In this document: one piece after another, positions 3,005 to 51,062 of the stretch
Position numbering within the stretch: the stretch's first letter is position 1
How the letters are laid out: the number at the start of each line of letters is the position of its first letter
NCBI GenBank assembly: GCA_000165345.1
Contig: CM000434.1
Location: forward strand, 448,001-512,000
Direction of reading: 5' to 3'
DNA: 64,000 bases
Notes under the pieces: model-generated
The model's database searches: none
What the model was told of the DNA's origin: nothing
What the model saw: only the letters and a program-made list of their open reading frames with translations
Translations under genes and position numbers: made by a program

Positions 3005-5434
3005 ATGAAATCTAGAATTATTCCCTCAAAGATTATCAAACTCGGCAAAAACCGAGTTTTTTGTAGGACTTTTCTAATTACTATTCTAATTTTTCTGATT
3101 TTTTTCTTTAAGCGAAGATTGGTGATCGATTTATTGTTGATTGTCGAACTTATATTAATTGACATTTTATTTTCAAAATTCCTAAAGAAAAAAAAGGCGA
3201 TTTACAGTTCTATAAGTTCTACAAATTTAAACTTGGAGAAAAGAAATTCTATTGAGCTTAAAAAATTATCTACTGATAGCTGTAATAACTCCCTTAAGCA
3301 ACAAAAAACTATTAAAAGCCTGAGCGATGACAGAAAATCACGAAAAATTGGGAGAAAAAAAAATAAGGGATATGGCTGGACTCTCACAATTATAGCCTCA
3401 TTAATATTGATATTTACGTCGTTTTATGAAAGCTTTATTGCTAACATTATTTATAAAGAATATTCTAATGAAAAGGAAATAACAAGCCTAATAGATCAAT
3501 ATTCGGAAGAAAGGAAGTATTATAGCAATGTTTTTAAATATAACCCTCCAATTAATTTACCTACTCTAGAATTTTCCAATTGGTTACTCACTAATTGGGT
3601 TTTTAGAACTATTTCAAATTTACCAATTTTATTTTCCGACTATTCAAATATTAAAAAAAAAGGAATTGAATATATCGAAACTGAATTTGATACGTTCATT
3701 AATTTGAAAAAAGGCTCAATATCGAATATAACTAATAATGAACTTGAAAATAGTAAGTTTGATGGGCAAGAAACAAATATTGATTTTGTTTCTGATTCAA
3801 GTGAATTCAATGAAAACGATAGAATAAGTATTGTAATTCCAGCTCATAACGAAGATGAATTTATTAGCAAAACAATAATCTTTACTATTGAGTCAACTCC
3901 AACTGAATTACTAAGAGAGATCATAATTGTTGATGATTTTAGTGAAAAACCAGTGTTTGAAATACTTGAAGAAGAACTTCCAGAAAATTATAAAAAATAT
4001 GTGAAAATAATTAGGTTAAAGAAATGTGAAGGTTTAATAAGATCAAAAATTATTGGTGCAGATGCTGCTTTAGGCCCTAACATATTTTTTTTAGATGGGC
4101 ATTGTAAACCAAAAAAGGGTTGGTCAGAAGCGCTAGTTAAATCAATTAGAGAAAATTACAAGAGAGTTGTATGCCCAATCGTCCAAAGTATTTCAAATAT
4201 TGATTGGAGTGATATAGGAACTGCTGGTGCGAAAATGATGATAGAATGGAACTTTGCATTCCATTGGTATGATGATGGATTACCAGAAATTCCAATAGCA
4301 TCTGGAGGAATATTAATGATTACAAAAAGATGGTGGGAAGAAAGTGGTAAATATGATCCAGGAATGCTTTATTGGGGTGGGGAAAATATTGAGCAAAGTT
4401 TTAGAGTATGGCTTTGCGGCGGAGAAATACATGTGGTAAGAAATTCTTTAGTTGGGCATATTTTTGAAAGAAATAATTCAAATAGAAGAAATCAAGATTT
4501 CCAATATAAAAAAATGTTAATTGATAATATGAATAGCAATCATCAAAGAACAGCATTTGTGTGGTTAAGCGAACAGTTTTATGAAACTTATTTCAAAAAT
4601 TATCATGTATTAGGTTATTTACCTATTAGTTATACTAAGGGCCTAAGCGAAAGACTTTCATTAAAACATATATTAAAGTGCAAACCTTTTGAATGGTATA
4701 TAGGAAAATTTAGACCGGCCTTTGAAAGGCAAGGCGAACTTTATTATAATTTCCACCACATTCAGCATGTAAAAAGCAAATTATGTCTCTCTATAGCAAA
4801 TAAACAGAATGATCGGATTGGAGTTGGAAAAGCTGAGATTGAAATTCCAATGACAGTGGTGCCAAACGATGTATCGAGATATAGCATTAAAACGACAACA
4901 GATTATGATATTTTAGCTTTAAAAACATGTAACTATCTTGATGAATCCCAAAAGTGGAGCTTTATCCTTGGAAATCGGATGTTATATAACTTCAAATCAA
5001 AGAAGTGCTTAGATAAAGCAAGTTCAGTTAATTTATTCAAAAAAATGAAGACAAAGGATTTTATATATTCTCCAAATAACAGCTCAGAATCTAATACTGA
5101 ACTAGAATTGCCTTTACTGTATGAGTGCGACTGGAATCTTGTAATGAGAGCAAGAAATTACAATCAATTTTGGGCATGGAAAGATATTGGCGATAAAAGT
5201 GGAAAAATCGTCAATTGGAGCGGCGATGAGCATAGATCAAATGTAACAGGGGGCGCAGAAGAATTCATAGTCCCAATAAACAAAGGAGTAGATAGCGAAA
5301 GTTACTGTTTGTATTCAAATACTGCTTTAGGTAGTTATGAAGAAACGAAAATGTTTTACAGTAATTGTAAAACAGAAAACAACTCTGAAGAAATTTCATT
5401 TAAGAAAATTTGGAGGCAAAATCTTTTTGTTTGA
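3005..5434 (+). CDS. Polypeptide N-acetylgalactosaminyltransferase (ppGalNAc-T, GT27) with C-terminal ricin-type lectin domain
   Basis: N-terminal signal-anchor ('FLITILIFLIFFF'), then a long low-complexity stem. GT-A motifs 'ISIVIPAHNE', 'IIVDDFS', the DxH motif 'FLDGHCKP' and the Gal/GalNAc-T motif 'WGGENIEQSFRVWLCGGEIHVV' are present. The C-terminal region has QxW-like repeats ('SQKWSF', 'NQFWAW'). The true start could be a downstream Met. Confidence 0.85.
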   Translation: MKSRIIPSKIIKLGKNRVFCRTFLITILIFLIFFFKRRLVIDLLLIVELILIDILFSKFLKKKKAIYSSISSTNLNLEKRNSIELKKLSTDSCNNSLKQQKTIKSLSDDRKSRKIGRKKNKGYGWTLTIIASLILIFTSFYESFIANIIYKEYSNEKEITSLIDQYSEERKYYSNVFKYNPPINLPTLEFSNWLLTNWVFRTISNLPILFSDYSNIKKKGIEYIETEFDTFINLKKGSISNITNNELENSKFDGQETNIDFVSDSSEFNENDRISIVIPAHNEDEFISKTIIFTIESTPTELLREIIIVDDFSEKPVFEILEEELPENYKKYVKIIRLKKCEGLIRSKIIGADAALGPNIFFLDGHCKPKKGWSEALVKSIRENYKRVVCPIVQSISNIDWSDIGTAGAKMMIEWNFAFHWYDDGLPEIPIASGGILMITKRWWEESGKYDPGMLYWGGENIEQSFRVWLCGGEIHVVRNSLVGHIFERNNSNRRNQDFQYKKMLIDNMNSNHQRTAFVWLSEQFYETYFKNYHVLGYLPISYTKGLSERLSLKHILKCKPFEWYIGKFRPAFERQGELYYNFHHIQHVKSKLCLSIANKQNDRIGVGKAEIEIPMTVVPNDVSRYSIKTTTDYDILALKTCNYLDESQKWSFILGNRMLYNFKSKKCLDKASSVNLFKKMKTKDFIYSPNNSSESNTELELPLLYECDWNLVMRARNYNQFWAWKDIGDKSGKIVNWSGDEHRSNVTGGAEEFIVPINKGVDSESYCLYSNTALGSYEETKMFYSNCKTENNSEEISFKKIWRQNLFV

Positions 5435-22587: not shown

Positions 22588-23634
22588 ATGGGCCAAGCTA
22601 ATAATAAAAATCAACAAAAAAAAGCAACTCAACTCCATCATAGAAATGTGCATGCCAATGATGATTTTTTATTTTTATCTGAAAGATACCCTGAGCTTAA
22701 AAAATGTATCAAAATAATAAATAATAAAGTACGTATTAATTATAACCCCGCAGCATTACACTGTATTTCGAAAGTATTGCTGCATTACAGATATAATATT
22801 AATTGGGACATACCGGATAAATTTCTAATACCAACAATACCTTCGAGAGCTAACTATGTACACTTTATTTCAGACCTGTTAACTCCAGAACACTTTTATA
22901 ATACGGAAAAAGTAAACGATGAAGGATTAAGAAACGATCTAAAGACAAAAACATGTATTGAAGGTGGTACAGATGTTTGTTTTTCTGAGCTTATTCCTAG
23001 AGGAAAACAAGTTTTGGGGTTTGATATAGGAATTGGTGCAAACTGCATATTTTCTCTTCTATGCAACAAAATTTATTCTTGGAATATGATCGGCTCAGAT
23101 ATTTCAATTGAAAGCCTGAGTGTTTCAGACACTATTATTAAAAAAAACAATCTTTGTGGTTGTATAAAACTTTTGCATCAAGAAAAACCAGAATATATAT
23201 TATTCGGGATACTTGACAAAACTGAAATAGAAGACTTGAAATTCTCATTCACTATCTGTAACCCTCCATATTATGATTCAGTTGAAGATTCAGAAATTAA
23301 TATGCACCCTGCTCGCTTCAGGAGTTGTCAAAATTACGAAATAATAACTCATGGAGGTGAATCTCAATTTATCTTGAAATTGTATTTCGAAAGCAAGAAT
23401 TTTTCGAAAAGGGTAATCTGGTACACTTCTCAAGTTTCGAAACTAAAAAATTTGAAATTTTTGAAAAGTGTTCTTAAAAAAGAAATCATTAACAATGAAT
23501 TAAAATCACTTAGATACACTACTCTAAAACAAGGGAAGCATGACAAGTGGGTAATTGCATGGAGCTTTTTTGAAAAGGAAGAGAGAACCTCAATATTAAA
23601 GTTTCTCAGAAACAATAAAAACATGAGCTCTTGA
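22588..23634 (+). CDS. METTL16-like N6-adenosine RNA methyltransferase (U6 snRNA m6A methyltransferase family)
   Basis: 348 aa. SAM-binding motif I 'LGFDIGIGANCIFSLL', catalytic 'ICNPPYY' (NPPY/NPPF class) and the C-terminal 'KWVIAWSF' all align with the METTL16 methyltransferase domain (human 'GIDIGTGASCIYPLLG', 'NPPFF', 'RWALAWSF'). Confidence 0.8.
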   Translation: MGQANNKNQQKKATQLHHRNVHANDDFLFLSERYPELKKCIKIINNKVRINYNPAALHCISKVLLHYRYNINWDIPDKFLIPTIPSRANYVHFISDLLTPEHFYNTEKVNDEGLRNDLKTKTCIEGGTDVCFSELIPRGKQVLGFDIGIGANCIFSLLCNKIYSWNMIGSDISIESLSVSDTIIKKNNLCGCIKLLHQEKPEYILFGILDKTEIEDLKFSFTICNPPYYDSVEDSEINMHPARFRSCQNYEIITHGGESQFILKLYFESKNFSKRVIWYTSQVSKLKNLKFLKSVLKKEIINNELKSLRYTTLKQGKHDKWVIAWSFFEKEERTSILKFLRNNKNMSS

Positions 23635-25446: not shown

Positions 25447-27615
25447 CTATATTGAACGGTTACTTTGCTTCTTTACTTTGTAAATTCTTATAACCCAATT
25501 ATCAGTTGTATAAGCTTCCTCAAAATGAGTAAGTGAGAATTGAGTTTTACCTATGTGGTAATTCCTTACTAAGTCAAAACCATCCTTCTGAAGATCCGAA
25601 AACCTATAATATGATAGCTTGTAAATCAGAGAATTAAGCATCGCATTAGATGCGTCTTTCCCCACAGTATAATGCCCACTATCCGATAGATAATCGTTTT
25701 GCTGAATGTGAGGATAAATTCCAGAAGCAATTCTTACCATCCATAAGAATTTATTGATATCATCAGAAGAATATTTTGCAAACCCACCAAATACAACAAA
25801 AACATAATCTACATCCAGTTTTTCTATTATTTTATAAGCCTCATCCTCAGGAGATGCCAATGCAAGCCCAACTGTAGCGATATGTGTGTTATTCCATGTA
25901 TTGTTATCTACAATTACGGTTCTGTCGCCTAATTCAGTGCATTGATATCCATAATCCCACCAAGACATTATCCTTGCATTGTAAGGGGTGTTCTTTCTCA
26001 ACCAATAATATGCTTCCCTAAAATCATCCTGAATTAGTCTAGTTCCATCTCTAAGACGGTTTGAAGTAATTACTGATGGATGCGAATACGCAACAGCAGA
26101 GCTCCAAACACTATGCACGACATAACTCACACAGAGCAAAAACATTAATAATACAAAAAAAACTCTGAGAATACCAAAATTCCCTTGGCTCCCGTCACCA
26201 TAAGTGGTTTTTTTTGTTTGCCTTCTGCCTATTAGACTCGATAATATAAAAGAAAATCCCACTGCAGAAAGGCAACAAGCCGCAGGCCCAAAAACCAGCA
26301 TCAGTCTAATCATGACAGAAGAAAAATAGACAGCAAGGACTCCATATACAATTAAAAATATTGCAGTATCGGGAATGCACGTACTATGTGATGTTTGAAA
26401 TGGTGAATTTTTTGGTGATTTTTTTTGAGAAATATAAATTGAATACGCACAGACAAATATTCCAAGAGGGAAAAATATCGCAGTAATATGGAGGTCAAAA
26501 ATATACTGTGACCAAGTTGTTGCTTGGTGTTCTGATACTGATGCGATAATAGGAACATGCTTAGACGCATATGTGGGATCTAAAAGAGTCATACTTCTTG
26601 CCGCCCACCTAGTTTTTCCAGACAGTGTCAATACCAAGAAGGCGGAGCTAGATACCAAGAAGCAAGAAATCCATATAGCTTTTAGAAGTATTCGGCTTGA
26701 AGAAGTGCTCAGAATATATTTTGAGGAGTTCAATGCTATAACGCACACTACAAGAAATGCCATACAGTGTGATGAAAGGTGTTCCGAAGATTTTACGGCG
26801 CCCACGTTGACAAATGGAATGTTAAGGTTCAATATTGTACCAATAACATAAAATACAATATAAACTACAAAGTGTTTGTATGTAAATCTGTTGAGTAATA
26901 CAAGAGCTAGTGTATAGATTGCAATTGTATTAATTACAAACACATATCCTCCCCAACTCATAGTCATATAATTGTAGGCAAGAGCTGCAAAAAATGAACT
27001 CAATATTCTACCATCATTTACTGCCCTCAAATATAGTGCAAAGCTGAATACAAGAGCAAAAATTGCAACTGCTTCATTATCATAACTTCCTGCAACGCTC
27101 CTACTCAGATACGTAGGAGATATACCCGTAAAGAGAGCTGCCATTATTCCCGTTTCATTTCGCTTAGTTATTTGAAATGTGAGTAAGTATGAAGCAAGTG
27201 CAGTTAGACTTGAGATTATTGGTCCTGTAAAAACACAAATGTGTAAAATACTTACAAGTAAACCCAATTGATGTGCAATATACCTCATCAAAGCAGCAGT
27301 AAGCATGAGACCAGGAAATAGAGTTTGCCCAATAATCCTACCAAGAGGGTACCAACTCCTGCTATCAAACCAGTTCCAAAATGCATAAAACCCATGTTTT
27401 GAAAGAAATTTCGAGGTTCTATAGTTAAAATGTGGATCAAACTCGTGTATTATCGCCTCATATCTTACTACGGCAAAAAGCCTCACAAAAATACAAAGTC
27501 CCATAATTAAAACCACGGATAGAAACAACAAAACAGGAGATATCCTTCCAGCAGATTCAAATATTGATTTTTTTTTGTATTCATTTTCTAATTCTTTATA
27601 ACTTATGTCTTTCAT
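25447..27615 (-). CDS. STT3: Oligosaccharyltransferase catalytic subunit STT3
   Basis: 722 aa multi-pass membrane protein with the diagnostic 'WWDYGYQ' motif and STT3-like N-terminal TM topology. Confidence 0.95.
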   Translation of the reverse strand: MKDISYKELENEYKKKSIFESAGRISPVLLFLSVVLIMGLCIFVRLFAVVRYEAIIHEFDPHFNYRTSKFLSKHGFYAFWNWFDSRSWYPLGRIIGQTLFPGLMLTAALMRYIAHQLGLLVSILHICVFTGPIISSLTALASYLLTFQITKRNETGIMAALFTGISPTYLSRSVAGSYDNEAVAIFALVFSFALYLRAVNDGRILSSFFAALAYNYMTMSWGGYVFVINTIAIYTLALVLLNRFTYKHFVVYIVFYVIGTILNLNIPFVNVGAVKSSEHLSSHCMAFLVVCVIALNSSKYILSTSSSRILLKAIWISCFLVSSSAFLVLTLSGKTRWAARSMTLLDPTYASKHVPIIASVSEHQATTWSQYIFDLHITAIFFPLGIFVCAYSIYISQKKSPKNSPFQTSHSTCIPDTAIFLIVYGVLAVYFSSVMIRLMLVFGPAACCLSAVGFSFILSSLIGRRQTKKTTYGDGSQGNFGILRVFFVLLMFLLCVSYVVHSVWSSAVAYSHPSVITSNRLRDGTRLIQDDFREAYYWLRKNTPYNARIMSWWDYGYQCTELGDRTVIVDNNTWNNTHIATVGLALASPEDEAYKIIEKLDVDYVFVVFGGFAKYSSDDINKFLWMVRIASGIYPHIQQNDYLSDSGHYTVGKDASNAMLNSLIYKLSYYRFSDLQKDGFDLVRNYHIGKTQFSLTHFEEAYTTDNWVIRIYKVKKQSNRSI

Positions 27616-40899: not shown

Positions 40900-43800
40900 C
40901 TAAGTAATCTTTAATATCTGTTTAAGTTTAAACTCCATCGAATCTTCAATTTTTTTTTCGCATTCTGGTACGTTGGAGATTTCATCATTCTTTTTTATCT
41001 TATTCTCTATGTTTCTTGAATTTAGGTAGTCTAGCCCATTTTTCTTTTTATTGATATTAATTGACAGCAATGACTTTAATTCAACAGCTAAGGGATGCTC
41101 ATTTGAATTAATATGTCTTATTTCAGTTTTATTCTTCGTCTTTCGGCATCTTAAATCTGAGTCATTACAATTATTATTATTATTATTATTTACTTCAGAG
41201 CTATTTTGTTTATCTGTGATTGATATTTCTTTCTTTCCCATTTGCTTTAAACTGCTATTTTGATTTTTCAGCCAATAATAACTATAATTATCACATTTTT
41301 TTTTGCTTTTTTCCGCTTTATTATTAAACTGCAAATCAAAGTTTAATATTTGTTTACTTATTATTTCTAAATGATTTTCATCTTTAAGATTTTGAATACA
41401 TGGTAGCAAAGGAATACACTCTGAAGATTTAACACTAATGCCTCTTAATTTAGAGCACATACCGTTTAAATTGTTTGCATTAATTTGAGTTTCATCCAAC
41501 AAAATATCAATAATTGTTGACGGATAATATTCCTTGTTAACTTTTACTCCACAGCATACAGATACAACTGTTCCAACTGTTCCAAAGGGCAACAATCCAT
41601 CATTTGTATTTATATAAACTACCCTAGTCCCCAAAGGGTACCCAAATCTTGAAATTAATTTATTTATGCCAGAGTTAAACTGATTCTCTGACTGATAAAA
41701 ATGCTCATTCCTACATAATTTCGACAAATCTATATATTTATCATTTGTCTCGATTTGTGAATTTAGAATTAGTCTTTCCAATCTAGAAATTGTTGAAGGA
41801 AGCATTGTTGCTGAATTAGAACGTGAAGATAAAAATGGTAAATTTCTATATAATTTACCCTTAATTATCTTTATCATTACATTAAATTTGAAGTCTTGAT
41901 CTTTTGAATCAATCAAATCCGAGAAAATATCCTTGACATGTATTTTCTTTAAGTTAAATACGTTTTCAACCTTTTCATTGTTATTGTCAATATTAAATGT
42001 GTTTGAGCAAATATTTTTTCCTTCAGAATTTATTATGTGTTCATCTAACTCTCCCTGGTCCAATAATACCAAACTTTTAAAAATAGCCAAAACAAAACAA
42101 GGGAAAAGGTCTAAATATTCTAATATTGATTTTATTGCTTCGTTGCTAACAATAGGAGTCCCAAGTTCCACATTAGTATTCGATGATGTAATAAATGAAT
42201 TTTCATCTACGAATTTACTATATAAAGGTAAATAAAGCTTATTTTTTAATTTATTTTCAAATTTAAAAAGATTCATCGATATTTCTTGCAAAGTACTATC
42301 GTTGCACTTCACTTGAATTGGACCAATAATTAGTTTCTTAAGAAATAAGGTTGAAAAGCGCATATACTCAAGTGATTTAGTAGCATCTAATCCGCATTTT
42401 GTGTTTAAGCAATTTAACAAGGGTTTGTATATTATTTTTGCAACATCCTCAATAGAAAACCATTGTATTGAAGATAAGTCTTCCAAAGCATATTCAAAAA
42501 TTCTCTTTTGAAGTTGTTCCACTTTATTCTTGTTTTTTGGAATTCGAAATAGTACTAATCTTTGAGCTTCATCTACAATTGTGCCGATATATCCATAGTT
42601 TGGATTTTGTTTATTAATGCAAAGGAGCTTTTCACCTAAATTTATTTTACTAATCTGCTTAAAACGTTCAGCCTCACTCTCTTTTAAATCTGAATACAAT
42701 AATATTAGTGGTAGCAAATAGTGTTTTGATATTTTTGAGAAGTTAAATTCAACCTTGCCACTCTCAGTAATGTAACTGCTCTCAGCAACTCTAGCCTCAA
42801 CAAGACAATTTACTGGATCAGATATATCCTTCAGTTCAGCATCAAAATCTTTCAAGTCTAAAACTTCTTTGCAATTAACCAACTTTGAAATGGAAAGCAA
42901 TTCTTCATCAATATTCATTGAATTTGAGGGGGAAAGAACAATTCCTCGTTTCTTTAGAAGTGAATTTTCATTAAATAATAAACGAATAAACTCTTTAGGA
43001 TTGTTGTTAGGTTCAATAATAGGTTTTGTCAGCAGCTTCGGTCTTAGAATATATCTCAAAGTTTTTATTGAAACAAGCTCAGCAACCTTCATTCTAGGAT
43101 AGTCAACCAATATTCTTATACCTGGATTTCTTGTATTAATGGAAGGTAGAAAGAGATTATTTAAAAACTCCTTTGAAATATGAGATGAAGATATTGAGGA
43201 AAAAATTGATTCATTACTACTTTCAGTCCCAAAAACACTTATCCCAGAACTATAATAAATTCTATAAGGAATTCTGCAAAGGTTTGGGAACCAATCGAAA
43301 GGTAATATTGTATTATCTAGTAAATAATTAGGGAAGTTTGATACACCGTCAGGGAATGCCGGATGATAAAACGATTTTGAAACTACCTTCGAGTTAGTAA
43401 TGGAAGGTAAGTATAATTTCACTGTGCTTTCAATTTTAGGAGTAGGAAATGCATAGTTATCCAAATAGAAAATAAATGGTCTCCCTTCCTGATTTCTGGC
43501 TTTATCTTCGGTATCTAAAAACTCCGAACTATTGATAATTGATGAATGAGTATTTGTATTAGCATCAATTAAATTTTCTAATTCACTTGTACTTAAATAA
43601 AATTTATACCGATTTTTCAGTTCATATTCAAAATTAGTCTTTATTTTGATTTCAAAATTTCTAAAATCAGAGTCATAAAAACCACATTTTGAAAGAACAT
43701 ATGTAATTGAATCCAATAGAAGGAACTCATCAATAAAAGGAATTAATGTTACGCCACCCCAAGGAACCTTGACGCCTTCCATATCAACTTCAAAGTTAGC

Positions 43801-45666
43801 CGGATAAAAACTCAATAATGGTGAGTTTGGATTAGTAAACAGCTTCCTAAATGGCTTTGGTAAAAGATCCTTGCTATTTGAAGGAAGAACCCCCATTAGT
43901 TGCTCAAACGGTTGCAATGGATTTCCTTTAATAAACCGAAATGCTAACCCATTAAGCTCGATTTCCTCCGAATACATTGTGTGAACAAACATCAATTTAG
44001 AAGAACCATATTTAACAATATCATCTCTACTCAATGTTGAAATACTCTTATTTTGTAGCCAACAACTTAAAATAATGGCAATATCACATGCAAATGGCGC
44101 ATACCTATAAGGGTAATACCATCTCCATGAAGGAACACCTCTAAAATAATAATAGCTGACCCATTGCAAACCCTCAAGGTAACAAAAAACAATATCTTCA
44201 ATAGAATTAGTTGTTATCCTATTGGAATTCGTGTTAGATTTAATATTTGCTTGATTTTGAACATTTGAATTTTCTGGGAAAAACTTATCGATATTTATTG
44301 CCATTTTTACAAAGTAATATCTCCAACGCATAACTTCAAAATTTTCGGGTCTAGTTTCTTGCCACTTTGCCCTAAATTTATCTTGTTCTATAGAGTCTGA
44401 TTTCATAAACCTTGGAACACCTATTGAATCTGAACTAATTTTGTTTTGGTCTGGGATTACCTTTTTCCAATAATCTGGATTAGAAATACGTTTTTCAGCT
44501 TCTTCTTTCTCCGAAATAATATGCCAAATTAGAAACCGTAACAAATTTACATAATTGATTCTACCACAATCTTCGAGTATCCATGGAGAACTACTCAACT
44601 TCATTAAAAAAAAATGAGCCAAATACTTTCTATAACTACTTATTATCCTTGCTAGTCCTTGATCAACAGTGTGGAATGGGATATGAGGGAGAAAATCATT
44701 TCCAACAATGAAGCCTAAGATAATAAAATCGTCAATAAGGCGTTCTCCATCTATTAAAACGTTATCGAAAATACTAATTTGATCCTGTGAATCATTTTTC
44801 AGTCCAAACTTGTATCCGAAACATAAATTTAACTCCTCAACACTTAAATTTCTAGGATTTAAATCATTTATAATATAATCTCTTAAAATAGAGATATGCA
44901 GAAATTGAAACCTTTCCTTTGTGCAAACCGTTCTACTCTCATAATTTCTTGAACTTGAAAATTTTATTTCTTCCCTCAACAAAGAAAAATGTGGTTCATG
45001 AGAAGCAAGAGAAAGCATTATCAAATCAGCATCAAGGCCATACAAGCAATGAGTCGTGTTGTTATTATAGTCTCTTTGGGATTTAATACAACGTATGAAA
45101 TCCATTATTTTATGTTCGCCTTCACCAGGTACGTCAGCTCCACTTAAAACAACTTCTAAATGTTTCCATAATGGATCAGTATGTATTTGATGGTAAATAA
45201 AAAATTCCAGTTGTCTCCGCAACTCATGCATAAAAGTCGTACCAGGAGTTATACAATTCGAATCAAAAACGTTATTTTGTGTTGTATCAATAGAATTATT
45301 TTTCTCCATTTTCTTTAGAAACTCTGAATCCCTTGCAGACCTAAATCTTCTACTTCTTTGTTGATTCATTTTAGCTCTAGGAGCAACCCCATCAACTGCA
45401 ATATAAAGTAATTTCCTAGGTTTAGCTATGTATACCAACTTATTTATATATCTAAAAATAGCAGCCCAAATTTCTGGAGACCCTTTTTCAGATAAATTAA
45501 TCCCATTACTTGGAGTGCGCATTTCACTAGAATTCACACTATTGTGAGCAATTCCATTTACATCCAAATATAAATTATCAAATGGTGGTATAATTCCATC
45601 TGATATTTCCTCATTAATTTGAGGATACCTTTCTGATATCCATCTATAGAATCTCGAGATTCCCAT
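40900..45666 (-). CDS. 5'-3' exoribonuclease, XRN family (length suggests cytoplasmic XRN1-like)
   Basis: 1588 aa. The N-terminus 'MGISRFYRWISERYPQINEEISDGIIPPFDNLYLDVNGIAHN' matches the XRN catalytic N-terminal consensus ('MGVPKF(F/Y)RW..ERYP...FDNLYLDMNGI.H'). Acidic active-site residues are in the expected places ('LDADLIMLSL', 'GEGEHKIMDFIR'). Confidence 0.85.
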   Translation of the reverse strand: MGISRFYRWISERYPQINEEISDGIIPPFDNLYLDVNGIAHNSVNSSEMRTPSNGINLSEKGSPEIWAAIFRYINKLVYIAKPRKLLYIAVDGVAPRAKMNQQRSRRFRSARDSEFLKKMEKNNSIDTTQNNVFDSNCITPGTTFMHELRRQLEFFIYHQIHTDPLWKHLEVVLSGADVPGEGEHKIMDFIRCIKSQRDYNNNTTHCLYGLDADLIMLSLASHEPHFSLLREEIKFSSSRNYESRTVCTKERFQFLHISILRDYIINDLNPRNLSVEELNLCFGYKFGLKNDSQDQISIFDNVLIDGERLIDDFIILGFIVGNDFLPHIPFHTVDQGLARIISSYRKYLAHFFLMKLSSSPWILEDCGRINYVNLLRFLIWHIISEKEEAEKRISNPDYWKKVIPDQNKISSDSIGVPRFMKSDSIEQDKFRAKWQETRPENFEVMRWRYYFVKMAINIDKFFPENSNVQNQANIKSNTNSNRITTNSIEDIVFCYLEGLQWVSYYYFRGVPSWRWYYPYRYAPFACDIAIILSCWLQNKSISTLSRDDIVKYGSSKLMFVHTMYSEEIELNGLAFRFIKGNPLQPFEQLMGVLPSNSKDLLPKPFRKLFTNPNSPLLSFYPANFEVDMEGVKVPWGGVTLIPFIDEFLLLDSITYVLSKCGFYDSDFRNFEIKIKTNFEYELKNRYKFYLSTSELENLIDANTNTHSSIINSSEFLDTEDKARNQEGRPFIFYLDNYAFPTPKIESTVKLYLPSITNSKVVSKSFYHPAFPDGVSNFPNYLLDNTILPFDWFPNLCRIPYRIYYSSGISVFGTESSNESIFSSISSSHISKEFLNNLFLPSINTRNPGIRILVDYPRMKVAELVSIKTLRYILRPKLLTKPIIEPNNNPKEFIRLLFNENSLLKKRGIVLSPSNSMNIDEELLSISKLVNCKEVLDLKDFDAELKDISDPVNCLVEARVAESSYITESGKVEFNFSKISKHYLLPLILLYSDLKESEAERFKQISKINLGEKLLCINKQNPNYGYIGTIVDEAQRLVLFRIPKNKNKVEQLQKRIFEYALEDLSSIQWFSIEDVAKIIYKPLLNCLNTKCGLDATKSLEYMRFSTLFLKKLIIGPIQVKCNDSTLQEISMNLFKFENKLKNKLYLPLYSKFVDENSFITSSNTNVELGTPIVSNEAIKSILEYLDLFPCFVLAIFKSLVLLDQGELDEHIINSEGKNICSNTFNIDNNNEKVENVFNLKKIHVKDIFSDLIDSKDQDFKFNVMIKIIKGKLYRNLPFLSSRSNSATMLPSTISRLERLILNSQIETNDKYIDLSKLCRNEHFYQSENQFNSGINKLISRFGYPLGTRVVYINTNDGLLPFGTVGTVVSVCCGVKVNKEYYPSTIIDILLDETQINANNLNGMCSKLRGISVKSSECIPLLPCIQNLKDENHLEIISKQILNFDLQFNNKAEKSKKKCDNYSYYWLKNQNSSLKQMGKKEISITDKQNSSEVNNNNNNNCNDSDLRCRKTKNKTEIRHINSNEHPLAVELKSLLSININKKKNGLDYLNSRNIENKIKKNDEISNVPECEKKIEDSMEFKLKQILKIT
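41170..41190. repeat. (ATT)7 trinucleotide microsatellite encoding poly-Asn inside the XRN gene
   Basis: 'attattattattattattatt' corresponds to 'NNNNNNN' in the minus-strand ORF. Confidence 0.8.
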
Positions 45667-45978
45667 TTTGAAACTAACATTTATAAATAACTTAAAAGAA
45701 AAAAATTAAATCCTCCCGCCAAATCAAATTTCTGTCTAATTGATTTTTTTTCTTAGATCAACTCAAAAACGATCAAAATAAGAATATGCTAAAAATCTAA
45801 GAACGTTAGATACAATACCATCTTTTAGTTGTATTTTAATAAAATTTTAACATTTTTTAATAGAATAGATTTTAGAAATTATTAATCCTCTTAAGTATGA
45901 AATAAGAAACACATTGAATATATGAAACCCTTTTCTATGTAAGAAAGCGACTTGGCAAACGAAACTCGGAGTTGTAGA

Positions 45979-46052
45979 GGTGGGATGGCCGAGCGGTCTA
46001 AGGCGCTAGTTCGAGGTGCTAGTTTTCGCGGGTTCGAATCCCGTTCCCATCA
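45979..46052 (+). tRNA. tRNA-like gene with leucine-type D-arm and anticodon arm but a class I (5-nt) variable loop; apparent anticodon GAG, C at position 33
   Basis: 74 nt. Acceptor stem GGTGGGA/TCCCATC (one G-U pair), discriminator A. The D-arm 'GCCGAGCGGTCTAAGGC' is identical to eukaryotic tRNA-Leu. Anticodon stem CTAGT/GCTAG with 7-nt loop TCGAGGT. T-arm GCGGG-TTCGAAT-CCCGT. The variable region is only 'TTTTC'. A T5 run follows immediately. Confidence 0.6.
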
Positions 46053-46053
46053 C

Positions 46054-46058
46054 TTTTT
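46054..46058 (+). terminator. RNA polymerase III oligo(T) terminator downstream of the tRNA-like gene
   Basis: 'cttttt' directly after the discriminator base. Confidence 0.5.
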
Positions 46059-46190: not shown

Positions 46191-49100
46191 TTATGCAGCG
46201 TTACAAGTTGGCCCAATACATGTTGTTTCATATGACACAATTGGGGTCGTTATAACTTTCTTGACGCAACCTGTACTAGTTTTTTCTGTATTGTCTGGGC
46301 ATCTACTATCTGGTTTTGTTACCAAAACGCACTCCTTATTGTCAAACAAAGTATATGGATCATTGCATGTTAATGAGAATGGAGCATATTCAACAATATA
46401 GCATGTGCCATCTTGATCGGTAACATACCCAGATGGACAACTGGAAACTACTGGTGTAGATTCTATCTTTTCACAACCACCGGATGGGCACACCTTAGGT
46501 GCGAATCTTGCGCATCTATCACCCAATAGTTGACTATCAGCTGTACAGCTTAATGAATATGGAGCAAAAACTTCTCTTGAACAAACAGTTGTCCTCACAA
46601 TGCTTACTTCCTGAGTAACTGCATGATGATGATGATGATGTCCTAGAGCGTGATGATGTCCAGAACTATGATGTGGATGATTTGAAGCTGTTCCTAAAGA
46701 CCTTCTGGTTCCTTGGGCAACTCCAGCCTCCATTGTGTAACCCGGTGGGCAAACAAGCTCTGGTGGGAATGTTCTTATTCTCTCGCAATCGCCATTTGGA
46801 CAGACTTTATCTGCATATTTTGCGCACTTATCGCTGATAACTATTAATCCAGGTGGGCATGCCAATTCATAATCTGCATATTCATTAGCAATACACCTCT
46901 GTCCACTTCTCTCAAAGTTTTGAGGACAAGAGAGAATTGGTGGTATATAACTGATTCTTTCACAATTGTTGTTTGGACAAACCTTTGCTGTTGATTGTTG
47001 GCACATATCTCCCAATAATCTGAATCCATCTGGACATTGTAGTGCATATGGCTCATAAACATTTCTCATACATTGACTTGCTCCACTGGCTTTATGACCA
47101 TGGGATCTGATTGCAACACCAGCCTGAGGTCTATAATATCCAGGTGGGCACTCCATCGTTGGTGGTGAACGAATGAGTTGTTCGCAGTTTCCATCTGGGC
47201 AAACTTTAACAGTATGGATCGCGCATTTATCTCCGATTATTGAATAATTATCTGGACAAGAAAGGTCATAAGGTGTATATATTTGTTTTGTACACTCTTG
47301 TAATAACTGGTTTCCATGTCCATGTCCATGTCCTGCATGATCTGAATGATGATTTGATTGTGGTCTAGTAAATCCAGGTGGGCATACCATATTGGCAGGT
47401 TTACTTATCAATCTCTCGCAGTTACCATTTGGACAGATTTTATTTGTAAACAATGCACATCTATCCCCTAATAACACGAACCCTGATGAACATACTAAAC
47501 TATACTCTTCAAAAATAGTTCTAACACATTCTGCTGAAGGTGTTGAATAATGATGTGTTCCGGCGGTATGCTTGCTTGAAATTGCTGTTTGAATTCCGTT
47601 GGCATTTCTGTAACCTTGTGGACATGAAAGAGTTGGTGGAACGACGACTTGTTTTCTGCAGTCACCTTGTAGACAAATTTTTTCTGTTTTTTCGATACAT
47701 TTGTCGCCATCTAAAATAAATGGAGATTCGCATTTTAAAATATAAGGTACTGAAATTGTCTTAATGCACTCAGGGGAAGCTAGATTTCTGTGATGATGAT
47801 GATGATGATGATGATGTCCTTGATAAATTGTGCCGGTTTGGTAAACTGGAGTTGGATAAGTTGTTAAAATTTCCTGTGTTTGATGAATTACTTGTGGCTG
47901 ATAATTTACTTGTCTTTGTTGAATTACTTGTGGTTGGTTAATAGTTTGTGGTTGGACGGGAACAGAAACATTTGGATGGTTAATATGAGAATGGCTTATT
48001 GGCTGAATTGGTTTAGATGATGAGAATCCTGGAGGGCATACTAATTCAGCAGGCTCATTATATATACGCTCGCAATTACCATTTGGACATATTTTATCCG
48101 AATATGTAACACATTTATCCGCTACAAGTCTTGATCCAACAGGACAGATAAGATTATATGGAGCATGGTCTGCATGGATGCATTTCATTTGCTGAATAGG
48201 AGCAACAACTGGAACTGGTTGTGGTGGCTGAGAAATTACAGGAGTATATTTATGTCCATGAGAATATCCCTTTTGAGAAGTAGATTGAACCCCAGCTAAG
48301 TGTCTGTGGTGTGGATGAGCAGAAATATTCATAACTTCATCTATTTGGTGATATCCAGGGGGACAAGTTAAAGAAACAGGCGCAGTTACAACTCTTTGGC
48401 AACTTTCATTCGGGCAAACTTTTTCTCTTGTGGTAGCGCATTTGTCTCCAACCAATGCATATCCTGCAGGGCATGCAAGATCATATGGTGAATATTTGTT
48501 AACTTGACATTGAGATCCTACATCTACAGAACCTGGCGGACATTTTAAAGTAGGTGGAGTTTTTACAAACTTAGCACACTCTTTTGATCTTGTTCCATCT
48601 TGACAAATTGCTTCTAATGGGTAGTAATTTGTTAATACACATTCTTTTCCTACAAGTTCAGCATTGTTCTCGCAAATAGGCACAGCTGGGACAGAATCAG
48701 CTTTTGTACAAGTTTTTGGGGTAATTTTTGGAACATCTTCACAAATTGGCCTTGGAGCCTCTTTATGATGTTGTGTATGTATATTCTGGGTTTGAATTGG
48801 TATAACTTGTGAATGTGAATGCCCATGAGAATGACCATGATGATGTCCTGGATTTTGTATCTCAGATGTTTCATAAACTGTTGATGTTTCTTTTGCAGCT
48901 GCTAATCTTCTTAGTGCTTTAACATCAGGTGTTTTACACTCTGTAACATAAGTTGTTACTGAACAGTCATATTGGCTTCTTCTAACACATTGTTTACCTG
49001 TTTCCAATGAATAACCAGGTGGGCATTCCAAAACAGGCGAACTAATCGATCTCTCTACGCAAACGTCCCCCTCTCTAGTACCAACAGGACAAACGTATTG

Positions 49101-51062
49101 AAGAGCCCCGGGAACAAGTCTTGTGCACGAGTCTCCATCCAACGCAGAACCTGGAGGACATTCTGGTGTTTTTGGTGAGGTAGTTGTTTGAACACACTGT
49201 TGATTTTGTAGAGTGAATCCAGTAGGACATACAGTTGAAGCAGGAGAAAATTGGATACAATCGTCTCCATTTGGTAAAAATCCATCTGGGCAGATAGCAT
49301 CGATCATTTTTAGTGCAGTACATTGATTTCCTTGAAGTTTATATCCTGGTGGACATTCTGAAACAGGAGGTGCTTCTTTTATTTGCTCGCATTGGGATCC
49401 AGAAAGTGTATATCCAGGTGGGCATTCTCTGTTTGGTGCGGAGAAAGAAGCACAATTTGTACCATTATCAATAAAACCAGTTGGACATACCATATTTATC
49501 CTTTCAACTTTTTGGCATTGTCCATTTACCAGGTTTGTACCTGGAGGACACTCTGGTTGTGGTGGAGCTTGAGTAGTTTGGGTACATTGTTTTCCAATTA
49601 ATACAAAACCTGTTGGACACTCCTTTTCTGGTTGAGAAAACTGAACACAGTCTGATCCATTGTCGAGATATCCAGGTGGACAAATGGCATCTTCTAGTTC
49701 ATATGAAATACAACTGTTATTTTCCAAGGTTGTACCTGGTGGGCATTCTGTTAATCTTGGAGCAGATTCTGTTTTAACACATTGTTTTCCGGAAAGAGAA
49801 AATCCTTGGGGGCAAATTTTCTCTGGTGCAGAAAATTGGACACAATCTTCGCCATTATCTACAAACCCTGGTGGACAAATTGTATCAACTCTTTCTATCG
49901 ATTGACATTGATCATCTTTTAAAATTGTACCTGGTGGGCATTCGAATTCCATGGGAGCATTTACCATTTGAACGCACCTGTTCCCACTCAATGTAAACCC
50001 GGGTGGGCATTCCTTTGTGACTGGAGAATATTTTACACAATCTTTTCCATTGTCTAAAAATTCTGGTGGACAGATAGCATCGATTGCTTGGACTGAAATA
50101 CAGGCATTATCTTGTAATACTGTACCTGGAGGGCAGACAGGTTGAGTTGGAGCAGAACTAGTTTGTATACATTGGAGGCCTTGTAAAATGAAATTTGGTG
50201 GGCATTCCTTTGCAGGAGCTACATATAGTACACAATCATCTCCTGAGTCTGTATATCCTGGTGGGCAGACCATATCAATATTTTTAATCACTTTACATTT
50301 TCCATTTTCAAATATTGAATTAGGTGGGCATGTCGATTCTAATTCAGCTGATTCTGGTGCCATACATTGTTGTCCTGACAAATTGAATCCAGGAGGACAG
50401 ATTTTATTTGCAGGGAGATATTGAACACATCTATTTCCTTCTTCAACAAAACCAGAAGGACAAACGGTATCAATTTGTTGAATTAATTTACATGTGCCAT
50501 TCTCCAGTATAGTGCCTGGAGGACATTCTGGATTAGGAGGAGCTGTGTCTGATTGAACACATTGTTTTCCAGAAAAAACGAATCCTGGGGGACATGATTT
50601 TTCAGGCATAGTGAATGCAACACAATCTCTTCCATTATCTACGAAACCAGGGGGACATACTGTATCTATCATATGTTTAGAGATACACTCTGTTCCATGT
50701 AATGTAGTACCTGGAGGACAAGATGGTTGTTGAGAAGCGGTTTTAGTAGCAGTACATTGCTTTCCTGATATTTCGTATCCTGGTGGACATTGCTTTAGTG
50801 GTGCTGTTACTATTAAACAATGCCCCTCGTGATAGATTGCTGGTTCCTGACAGAAAGGCATAGGAGGAACCTGGATACGTTGGACACAAACTCCATTCTC
50901 CATTAAATACCCTGGAGGGCAGCTTTCTAGCGGAGTTTCAACATACGTAGGTACCTGGCCTTTTGTGTGTGGCAAAGGGGAAGCTACACCAGGAATGTTG
51001 GGTTTAACCTGAGGCGCACCAAATGCACCAATAATAAACGACAATAATAAAATACGTTTCAT
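46191..51062 (-). CDS. COWP1: Cryptosporidium oocyst wall protein COWP1 (cysteine-rich type I/type II repeat protein with His-rich tracts)
   Basis: 1623 aa. Signal peptide 'MKRILLLSFIIGAFGAP'. Dozens of 'CPPG(Y/F/T)...C' cysteine-repeat units in two arrays, plus His-rich tracts ('HHHHHHHHH', 'HGHSHGHSHS'). The published COWP primers cry-9 (50090..50114) and cry-15 (reverse complement at 50621..50642) match exactly. Confidence 0.9.
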   Translation of the reverse strand: MKRILLLSFIIGAFGAPQVKPNIPGVASPLPHTKGQVPTYVETPLESCPPGYLMENGVCVQRIQVPPMPFCQEPAIYHEGHCLIVTAPLKQCPPGYEISGKQCTATKTASQQPSCPPGTTLHGTECISKHMIDTVCPPGFVDNGRDCVAFTMPEKSCPPGFVFSGKQCVQSDTAPPNPECPPGTILENGTCKLIQQIDTVCPSGFVEEGNRCVQYLPANKICPPGFNLSGQQCMAPESAELESTCPPNSIFENGKCKVIKNIDMVCPPGYTDSGDDCVLYVAPAKECPPNFILQGLQCIQTSSAPTQPVCPPGTVLQDNACISVQAIDAICPPEFLDNGKDCVKYSPVTKECPPGFTLSGNRCVQMVNAPMEFECPPGTILKDDQCQSIERVDTICPPGFVDNGEDCVQFSAPEKICPQGFSLSGKQCVKTESAPRLTECPPGTTLENNSCISYELEDAICPPGYLDNGSDCVQFSQPEKECPTGFVLIGKQCTQTTQAPPQPECPPGTNLVNGQCQKVERINMVCPTGFIDNGTNCASFSAPNRECPPGYTLSGSQCEQIKEAPPVSECPPGYKLQGNQCTALKMIDAICPDGFLPNGDDCIQFSPASTVCPTGFTLQNQQCVQTTTSPKTPECPPGSALDGDSCTRLVPGALQYVCPVGTREGDVCVERSISSPVLECPPGYSLETGKQCVRRSQYDCSVTTYVTECKTPDVKALRRLAAAKETSTVYETSEIQNPGHHHGHSHGHSHSQVIPIQTQNIHTQHHKEAPRPICEDVPKITPKTCTKADSVPAVPICENNAELVGKECVLTNYYPLEAICQDGTRSKECAKFVKTPPTLKCPPGSVDVGSQCQVNKYSPYDLACPAGYALVGDKCATTREKVCPNESCQRVVTAPVSLTCPPGYHQIDEVMNISAHPHHRHLAGVQSTSQKGYSHGHKYTPVISQPPQPVPVVAPIQQMKCIHADHAPYNLICPVGSRLVADKCVTYSDKICPNGNCERIYNEPAELVCPPGFSSSKPIQPISHSHINHPNVSVPVQPQTINQPQVIQQRQVNYQPQVIHQTQEILTTYPTPVYQTGTIYQGHHHHHHHHHRNLASPECIKTISVPYILKCESPFILDGDKCIEKTEKICLQGDCRKQVVVPPTLSCPQGYRNANGIQTAISSKHTAGTHHYSTPSAECVRTIFEEYSLVCSSGFVLLGDRCALFTNKICPNGNCERLISKPANMVCPPGFTRPQSNHHSDHAGHGHGHGNQLLQECTKQIYTPYDLSCPDNYSIIGDKCAIHTVKVCPDGNCEQLIRSPPTMECPPGYYRPQAGVAIRSHGHKASGASQCMRNVYEPYALQCPDGFRLLGDMCQQSTAKVCPNNNCERISYIPPILSCPQNFERSGQRCIANEYADYELACPPGLIVISDKCAKYADKVCPNGDCERIRTFPPELVCPPGYTMEAGVAQGTRRSLGTASNHPHHSSGHHHALGHHHHHHAVTQEVSIVRTTVCSREVFAPYSLSCTADSQLLGDRCARFAPKVCPSGGCEKIESTPVVSSCPSGYVTDQDGTCYIVEYAPFSLTCNDPYTLFDNKECVLVTKPDSRCPDNTEKTSTGCVKKVITTPIVSYETTCIGPTCNAA
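46623..46640. repeat. (ATG)6 / (CAT)6 microsatellite encoding a His tract in COWP1
   Basis: 'atgatgatgatgatgatg' on the plus strand corresponds to HHHHHH in the minus-strand ORF. Confidence 0.8.
47791..47816. repeat. (TGA/CAT)n about 9-unit microsatellite encoding the H9 tract of COWP1
   Basis: 'tgatgatgatgatgatgatgatgatg' corresponds to 'HHHHHHHHH' in the minus-strand ORF. Confidence 0.8.

Follow-up and report, generated by a model that had tools for sequence, protein, structure and literature searches.

A conserved Cryptosporidium tRNA gene combines a leucine GAG anticodon and C33 with a class I variable loop

Next to the oocyst wall protein gene COWP1 of Cryptosporidium parvum lies a tRNA gene which joins a rare, documented trait, a leucine GAG anticodon preceded by C33, to the short variable loop of a class I tRNA. 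What makes the gene unusual is the absence of the long arm: a class I variable loop in a cytosolic tRNA-Leu appears to be undescribed so far, and in the literature that we searched there was no description either of an armless cytosolic tRNA-Leu or of this C. parvum gene at the side of COWP1. We think that the gene probably encodes a functional elongator tRNA-Leu of class I shape, which would decode CUC and CUU and would be charged by the single cytosolic LeuRS. With a shared anticodon, C33, G37, A73 and D arm, the best explanation of its sequence is that it represents the apicomplexan counterpart of the tRNA-Leu(GAG) of Saccharomyces and Nakaseomyces.

The window (the whole stretch of DNA that was analysed, 64 kb) belongs to C. 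parvum chromosome 6, and the tRNA gene sits there in the 524-nt spacer between COWP1 and the gene for an XRN1-type exonuclease (Table 1). Rfam cmscan finds a single tRNA of 74 nt at this place and no other tRNA in the 64 kb (RF00005; 53.9 bits, with the gathering score at 29, E = 8.3e-09, and the match running through the whole model, 1-71 of 71), and ARAGORN calls tRNA-Leu (gag) over the same interval. The score thus lies above the curated gathering threshold across the full cloverleaf, and six orthologous loci give an identical score. The original prediction had described a leucine-type tRNA with C33 in the anticodon loop, a variable loop of only five nucleotides (TTTTC) and a T5 run behind the gene. 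Each of the elements that it listed is found in its place by reading of the sequence, by Rfam and by ARAGORN, with the five-nucleotide loop the same in all eight species compared and the position of C33 supported by the alignments discussed below; what the covariance model reports is a normal-scoring tRNA. As far as can be read from the sequence, the features of a nuclear Pol III tRNA gene are all present, with A and B boxes (which we take to be such from the familiar consensus), an oligo-T tract and no encoded CCA. The T5 run is likely to be the Pol III terminator, and C48 should be able to form the Levitt pair with G15. The UUUUC pentamer takes the place of the hairpin of 11-13 nt found in class II tRNA-Leu.

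Table 1. Parts of the tRNA gene and the flanking protein genes, with positions in the window and tRNA numbering where applicable.
Feature	Position	Strand	Sequence or description	Basis
XRN1/Kem1-type 5'-3' exonuclease gene	40900..45666	-	Pfam XRN_N, XRN_M, SH3_12	97% identity to C. hominis
tRNA gene	45979..46052	+	anticodon GAG (Leu), class I length, CCA not encoded	Rfam, ARAGORN, 8 Cryptosporidium species
Acceptor stem			GGTGGGA/TCCCATC, G2.U71	direct sequence reading
Single bases around the D arm			U8, G9 between acceptor and D arm; G26 after D arm	direct sequence reading
A-box-like Pol III segment	45986..45996	+	TGGCCGAGCGG; positions 8-19, D-arm 5' half included	invariant in 8 species
D arm			GCC-G-AGCGGTCTA-A-GGC; 3-bp stem, G13.A22 mismatch	
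Anticodon stem			CTAGT/GCTAG (RNA CUAGU/GCUAG)	
Anticodon loop	46011..46017	+	U32 C33 G34 A35 G36 G37 U38	
C33	46012			
Anticodon	46013-46015		GAG	
Variable loop	46023..46027	+	TTTTC = U44 U45 U46 U47 C48, 5 nt	
T arm			GCGGG-TTCGAAT-CCCGT	direct sequence reading
Pol III B box	46031..46041	+	GGTTCGAATCC; T stem and loop	invariant in 8 species
Discriminator	46052		A73	invariant across 8 species
T5 run	46054..46058	+	one base (C) past the discriminator; gene end ...ATCA/C TTTTT	
COWP1 (oocyst wall protein 1) gene	46191..51062	-		100% identity to CpCOWP1

Leucine and serine tRNAs are the class II tRNAs. According to a 2023 review the long variable arm is found in tRNA-Leu everywhere but in animal mitochondria (PMC9976931). 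A class II tRNA has a variable stem-loop of more than 10 nt, while in the eight species only UUUUC separates the anticodon stem from the T stem. The other marks of tRNA-Leu are there, namely an anticodon of the NAG/YAA type with A35 and G37 and the discriminator A73. Leucine tRNAs can be charged without the long arm: engineered minimal tRNA-Leu of E. coli and human, without the variable and/or the anticodon arm, are leucylated by the LeuRS of these species if A73 and the contacts of the D loop with the T loop are intact, and sequence-specific reading of the arm by LeuRS is peculiar to Archaea (PMC9976931). Such minimal molecules differ from the Cryptosporidium tRNA in being artificial substrates and not genomic tRNAs. 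Cryptosporidium has a single cytosolic LeuRS (PMC5038320). For yeast tRNA-Leu(UAG), leucylation in vivo is affected strongly by G18, m1G37, pseudouridine 55 and A73, and moderately by G2, G30, C61 and C62 (PMC9976931). The sequence of the Cryptosporidium gene has all eight of these determinants (G18, G37, U55, A73, G2, G30, C61 and C62). We infer leucine as the amino acid carried from the anticodon, G37, A73 and the identity of the anticodon loop with that of yeast Leu-GAG; we know of no rival synthetase which uses GAG as an anticodon identity.

The animal mitochondrial tRNA-Leu, including the human one, are alike in being without the long arm, and they are still leucylated, via A73 and A14 (PMC9976931). 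They differ in being organelle-encoded, structurally relaxed and served by their own mitochondrial LeuRS. In contrast, the Cryptosporidium gene is nuclear, with fully canonical D and T loops, and the mitosome does not translate. The mitosome genome of Cryptosporidium has been lost (PMC5146892), and there is one LeuRS in the genus (PMC5038320).

Eukaryotes usually employ an A34 (inosine) tRNA-Leu and lack a GAG isoacceptor, the cited exceptions being Saccharomyces and Candida (Nakaseomyces) glabrata (PMC8007984). In S. cerevisiae tL(GAG), a non-essential tRNA, carries C33 and competes with tRNA-Leu(UAG) for the decoding of CUC; the effect of a C33U change is minimal or minor (PMC13492127). The CUN box of yeast can be covered by tRNA-Leu(UAG). 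One review finds no conclusive evidence that tL(GAG) is aminoacylated (PMC8007984). The Cryptosporidium gene has the same association of C33 with a G34 leucine anticodon. A scan of metagenomes, with a pattern which joined the end of a Leu-type D arm to C33-GAG-G37 and the T loop and left the arm free to be of any length, gave 47 loci. Real tRNAs account for two of them, both with a long arm; as C33 was demanded by the pattern, these numbers say nothing of how frequent U33-GAG is or whether C33 is obligatory with G34. The remaining loci are tRNA-derived repeats (in termite-gut samples) or chance matches, and with this C33-requiring pattern no short-arm relative came up outside Cryptosporidium. 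One of the two tRNAs (L036:463-546(-)) is the tRNA-Leu(GAG) of Nakaseomyces glabratus, identified by exact protein matches, and its loop, UCGAGGU, is that of Cryptosporidium; the other has the loop UCGAGGC and comes from a GC-rich eukaryote (L051), in whose ORFs a Pfam search detected no domain. Aligned with these two long-arm Leu-GAG genes, the Cryptosporidium gene shows a gap of 6-8 nt and resembles them minus the variable hairpin. Since the functional yeast tRNA-Leu(GAG) has C33 and the N. glabratus loop is identical, C33 is no sign of decay. To the eukaryotes with C33 in a G34 tRNA-Leu, Cryptosporidium adds a second lineage, distant from the first, and the comparison suggests that the GAG-C33 combination is functional and not accidental.

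The likeness to the Saccharomycetaceae genes (S. cerevisiae tL(GAG)G and its N. glabratus equivalent) extends over most of the molecule. They are likewise nuclear, single-copy and eukaryotic, with G34, C33, G37 and A73, the D arm is identical but for one base and the T loop is of the same type. They differ in the 13-nt variable hairpin, which brings them to a length of 82-84 nt, against 5 nt in Cryptosporidium, and in the acceptor stem and the anticodon stem, where the changes are compensatory. Both yeasts are without tRNA-Leu(AAG).

The D arm had originally been taken as a mark of tRNA-Leu, and this did not survive the comparison with prokaryotes. A search for GGTCTAAGGCG, followed after 23-27 nt by GGTTCGAATCC, matched at least 120 prokaryotic genomes and 16 viral contigs, and 101 of the 136 full-length tRNAs extracted, among the matches listed, are class I tRNA-Cys (GCA, U73), with His, Pro, Gln and Met among the others. 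The same arm serves class I tRNAs for Cys, His, Pro and Gln, and the idea that it proves leucine ancestry is therefore rejected. As an arm without specificity for Leu, it falls short of proving that the gene descends from a class II tRNA-Leu. The archaeal and bacterial tRNA-Cys (and some His, Pro and Gln tRNAs) with the GCCRAG-YGGTCTAAGGC arm share with the Cryptosporidium gene the 3-bp D stem, the 13.22 mismatch and the D loop, as well as a short U-rich variable loop (5-6 nt) which ends in C and the GGTTCGAATCC T loop. Two archaeal tRNA-Cys (L094 and L079) combine an identical TGGCCGAG(C/T)GGTCTAAGGCG arm with a variable loop that is short and rich in U (in L094 TTTTTC) and with an unchanged T loop, and agree with the Cryptosporidium gene at 55-56 of 74 positions. 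They differ in the GCA anticodon, in U73 and A37 and in being prokaryotic, and there is no evidence of direct descent. What these comparisons show is that the D arm and short U-rich variable loop together form a natural, working class I core, and since prokaryotic class I tRNAs use this same core, the Cryptosporidium molecule should fold.

Short putative leucine tRNAs also turned up on viral contigs. A 74-nt gene on a phage-like contig of 145 kb with a phage-type exonuclease (L062:1265-1338(-)) has an identical D arm (TGGCCGAGCGGTCTAAGGCG), a variable loop of 5 nt (TTATC), A73 and a leucine anticodon. Its T stem is the same on the 5' side (GCGGG) and reads CCTGT on the 3' side versus CCCGT in Cryptosporidium; it differs in U33, in the anticodon, which is CAA, and in A38. 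Another short putative tRNA-Leu on a phage-like viral contig (L066:3460-3536(-)) is unrelated in sequence to the Cryptosporidium gene.

The codons that such a tRNA would serve are in use: in the ORFs of the window CUU is the second commonest leucine codon (20.9 per 1000 codons) and CUC is rare (4.4 per 1000). The CUY codons stand for leucine in the C. parvum genome, with CUU at Leu in 5/5 and CUC in 1/1 conserved columns of XRN1 in a comparison with 113 non-Cryptosporidium homologues, a small sample which gives no hint of CUY reassignment. The standard eukaryotic set has 46 anticodons. Several genome papers on Cryptosporidium give a count of 45 tRNA genes whose anticodons are shared (PMC8767354, PMC10438818, PMC9465071), including two Met genes and, in most species, only two Val isoacceptors (PMC8767354). 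As 46 minus Val-CAC gives 45, Leu-GAG would fit in only by replacing another isoacceptor. Going by these totals, and not by observation, this would most simply be Leu-AAG, as in yeast.

In the mechanism that we propose, the gene would be transcribed by Pol III and the transcript, with its ends processed and CCA added, would be leucylated by LeuRS via A73, G37, the G18/G19-U55/C56 contacts and the elbow, with no need for the arm. The capacity of an archaeal-type LeuRS to recognise the arm by its sequence (PMC9976931) speaks against charging of this kind. On the ribosome CUC would then be read by Watson-Crick pairing and CUU by G.U wobble. As to its origin, the molecule may derive from a class II tRNA-Leu which lost its arm. 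A more far-reaching proposal, which we put forward tentatively and would not bet on, is that this is the dedicated and perhaps the only decoder of the G34/I34 type for CUU and CUC in Cryptosporidium, and that it took over from tRNA-Leu(AAG), as in Saccharomyces. In that case a eukaryotic cytosol would be reading a common leucine codon (CUU, ~21 per 1000) with an armless tRNA-Leu, the first cellular non-mitochondrial exception to the class II rule for tRNA-Leu, and the single Cryptosporidium LeuRS would have to recognise tRNA-Leu without recourse to the arm. Should the genome contain Leu-AAG, tRNA-Leu(GAG) would be an accessory isoacceptor, as in yeast; a molecule that is redundant or not charged would be a minor oddity in a tRNA set that is reduced. 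An armless nuclear leucine tRNA under selection would be a natural experiment for LeuRS, EF-1A and the ribosome, and bears on how a tRNA changes from class II to class I, a change which tRNA-Tyr once underwent. Cryptosporidium LeuRS is already an anti-parasite drug target, and an unusual substrate of it is therefore of practical interest.

How far does the evidence speak for decoding? The main competitor, which we regard as unlikely, is that the gene makes a conserved tRNA-shaped Pol III transcript with little or no use in decoding, whose leucine-like features are historical. Possible roles would be that of a source of tRNA fragments, of a ligand or decoy of LeuRS or some other protein which binds tRNA, or of a chromatin or Pol III boundary beside COWP1. 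Such a role would accord with the loss of an arm otherwise universal in cytosolic tRNA-Leu (PMC9976931), with the departure of C33 from the U-turn consensus, with the dispensability and questioned charging of yeast tL(GAG) (PMC8007984) and with the abundance of tRNA fragments in C. parvum oocysts (PMC9465071). The near-total invariance of the gene is to be expected with and without decoding alike. However, the positions on which an L-shaped tRNA depends for charging and decoding (A73, G18G19, U54-A58, G37 and the 7-nt anticodon loop) are all intact and invariant, C33 is compatible with decoding in yeast (PMC13492127), and the comparison of flanks across the genus found neither an additional conserved flank nor an alternative conserved structure. 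The suggestion, made at the outset, of a tRNA-like regulatory or small-RNA locus, though still conceivable, has found nothing in its favour, and we retain a CUC/CUU-decoding elongator as the preferred reading.

A second alternative keeps the molecule in translation with altered decoding, either by an anticodon other than the nominal one or with another amino acid. In one version the loop would be enlarged to 9 nt (UUCGAGGUG) and read from the U at raw position 33 as CGA (Ser); in another, a synthetase that recognises class I tRNAs would charge the molecule, resulting in regulated mistranslation of CUY. The enlarged loop is conceivable as the closing pair U31.G39 is weak, Cys, His and Pro tRNAs have a class I shape and this D arm as well, and non-U33 tRNAs accompanied CUN reassignment in Candida (cited in PMC13492127). 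The register of the loop was examined in an alignment with the two bona fide long-arm tRNA-Leu(GAG) genes from the metagenome scan, four distinct sequences in all. All 80 pair cells (100%) hold standard pairs when the register is the canonical one, against 40-49% with registers slid by 1-3 columns; in the four helices all 20 of 20 pairs are standard in each of the four sequences, and 11 of the 20 are changed on both sides, among them 4 of the 5 in the anticodon stem. The pair 31-39 itself is maintained by compensatory changes (U.G, G-C and C-G), which argues against the 9-nt loop. Folding energy alone does not settle the register, because the MFE fold is an alternative pairing of the D and anticodon regions (-28.4 kcal/mol) and not the cloverleaf (-25.5 kcal/mol, or -27.0 with G26.U44); the folding z-score is only -1.48. 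Since covariation favours the canonical register, the anticodon loop is evidently of 7 nt with C at 33, and the other registers (9-nt loop, 6-bp stem and MFE hairpin) are rejected. As the alignment of CUU and CUC with leucine in XRN1 also speaks against altered decoding, as do A73 and G37, which fit Leu and not Ser (G73) or Cys (U73), and as we are aware of no synthetase with GAG identity, we consider it very improbable.

The gene was followed through the genus at orthologous loci fetched via the XRN1 and COWP1 orthologues, which cover eight species: C. parvum, C. hominis, Cryptosporidium sp. chipmunk genotype I, C. ubiquitum, a species in the Logan assembly SRR31860986, C. felis, C. xiaoi and C. 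serpentis of the gastric clade. It is present next to COWP1 in 8/8, and in seven of them it agrees at 74 of 74 nt, although alignment of the sequence breaks down a few bases beyond its ends. The XRN1 protein is 97% identical to that of C. parvum in C. hominis, but 58% in C. felis and 47% in C. serpentis. The C. serpentis copy has two substitutions, each of which preserves a pair: G49->A replaces G.U by A-U in the basal pair of the T stem, and with C67->U the acceptor-stem pair G6-C67 becomes G.U. Both promoter boxes, the 5-nt variable loop and A73 are invariant in the eight species, and a run of T5 or longer follows at the same site in 8/8, though the sequence past it diverges. Within the genus there is as a consequence of this near-total invariance almost no covariation. 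Such a pattern points firmly to strong purifying selection on the tRNA gene throughout the genus, and to a working gene and not a decayed copy or an assembly error.

That a class II tRNA-Leu of the normal kind is decaying here as a pseudogene, or has suffered a deletion through an error of assembly or sequencing, can be dismissed as extremely improbable: all that speaks for it is that the long arm is absent and C33 present, whereas the same 74 nt recur in independent assemblies of eight species and in four separate C. parvum records (BX526834 and a Logan read assembly included), the gene stays static while its flanks diverge freely, both observed substitutions keep pairing and the Rfam score is normal. 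No pair-breaking change, loss in a relative or low score was met with in these eight species, and none of their COWP1 loci, checked for a class II tRNA-Leu, has a long-arm version. Of the original description as a degenerate or unconventional tRNA, the second half stands, in view of a leucine anticodon, A73 and G37 combined with a 5-nt variable loop and C33; the first half, with derivation of a pseudogene from tRNA-Leu or loss of the arm in assembly as its proposed causes, is contradicted by conservation in eight species.

The position of the gene is as stable as its sequence. In C. parvum the tRNA lies downstream of COWP1, with 139 nt between the COWP1 stop codon and the tRNA 3' end, and 313 nt separate the XRN1 start codon from the tRNA 5' end. 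COWP1 is the syntenic anchor of the tRNA throughout the genus: the two adjoin in loci L001-L005 and L054-L058 and in several C. parvum records, including BX526834, and in a further locus (L006) there is a gene of 1595 residues, truncated at the edge of the locus and presumably COWP1, with the tRNA ~230 nt past its end. This adjacency survives rearranged surroundings, with a P4-ATPase gene between the tRNA and XRN1 in C. serpentis, and no XRN1 between COWP1 and an adaptin gene in C. xiaoi.

The window (1-64000) belongs to chromosome 6 of C. parvum. The tRNA lies on the downstream side of COWP1, from which it is separated by 139 nt; this neighbour is a genotyping marker and has been widely sequenced. 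Synteny near the conserved tRNA varies locally, as the orthologous loci of C. serpentis (L006) and C. xiaoi (L054) illustrate. In C. serpentis (L006 1126-5763) a P4-ATPase (flippase) gene is found between XRN1 and the tRNA, and in C. xiaoi (L054 8941-10994) an adaptin gene is only ~2 kb from COWP1 and the tRNA, a distance so short that XRN1 must be absent from this position.

About 20–40 nt 5' of the tRNA there is a block, AGAAAGCGACTTGG... (window 45941-45960; columns ~22-45 of A1, the alignment of the tRNA region across Cryptosporidium), which in this alignment is kept in C. parvum, C. hominis and chipmunk genotype I, with partial conservation in C. ubiquitum. The block could be a promoter element, either for the tRNA or for XRN1. 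It shows no conservation in C. felis or C. serpentis in the same alignment. It could also be mere residual similarity among close species.

The MFE structure predicted for the unmodified RNA of 45979-46052 differs from the cloverleaf. It has G9-C12 paired to G17-C20 and G24-U29 paired to G37-U42, and the canonical anticodon stem has a predicted ensemble probability of only ~0.33.

A third tRNA-Leu(GAG) of eukaryote type with C33 is found on a GC-rich metagenome contig of 2.6 kb (L051), and this gene hints that the C33-GAG combination reaches beyond Saccharomycetaceae and Cryptosporidium. The same metagenome scan returned a family of tRNA-derived repeats, with a class II-like 3' part GGTCTAAGGCG...CGAGG...GGGTTCGAATCCC followed by ...GGGGCATGGATGTTTGT, in which ARAGORN made no tRNA call. 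Most of them come from one sample group, which we presume to be termite gut, and they look like SINE-type elements in a host or protist genome.

Coordinates of the genes and tRNA-like loci discussed here
Feature	Location	Strand	Remarks
RNR large subunit	window 430-2841		
ppGalNAc-transferase-like GT2/ricin protein	window 3005-5434		
RNA methyltransferase	window 22588-23634		
STT3	window 25447-27615		
COWP1	window 46191-51062	-	100% identity to CpCOWP1
Eukaryote-type tRNA-Leu(GAG)	L051:265-345	+	C33, loop UCGAGGC, long arm
tRNA-derived repeat family	L008, L010, L014, L015, L017, L020, L021, L023, L024, L028, L029		
tRNA-derived repeat family, further loci	L031-L033, L039-L041, L043, L045-L050, L053		
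Class I-length tRNA, CAA	L062:1265-1338	-	
Class I-length tRNA, CAA	L066:3460-3536	-	
CUA tRNA ('Pyl', amber suppressor type)	L059:6196-6276		ARAGORN, viral tRNA cluster
UCA tRNA ('SeC', opal suppressor type)	L064:1203-1277		ARAGORN, viral tRNA cluster
Four-base-anticodon (ttga) tRNA	L066:12226-12301		ARAGORN, viral tRNA cluster

Two phage-like viral contigs, L062 and L066, carry tRNAs of class I length that have CAA, a Leu anticodon, which suggests that viruses may repeatedly have 'Leu' tRNAs lacking the arm. The L062 tRNA has a 5-nt variable loop, A73 and the D arm TGGCCGAGCGGTCTAAGGCG; this D arm is like those of eukaryotes and archaea. The CUA, UCA and four-base-anticodon tRNAs of the viral contigs L059, L064 and L066 may be suppressor or recoding tRNAs of phages.
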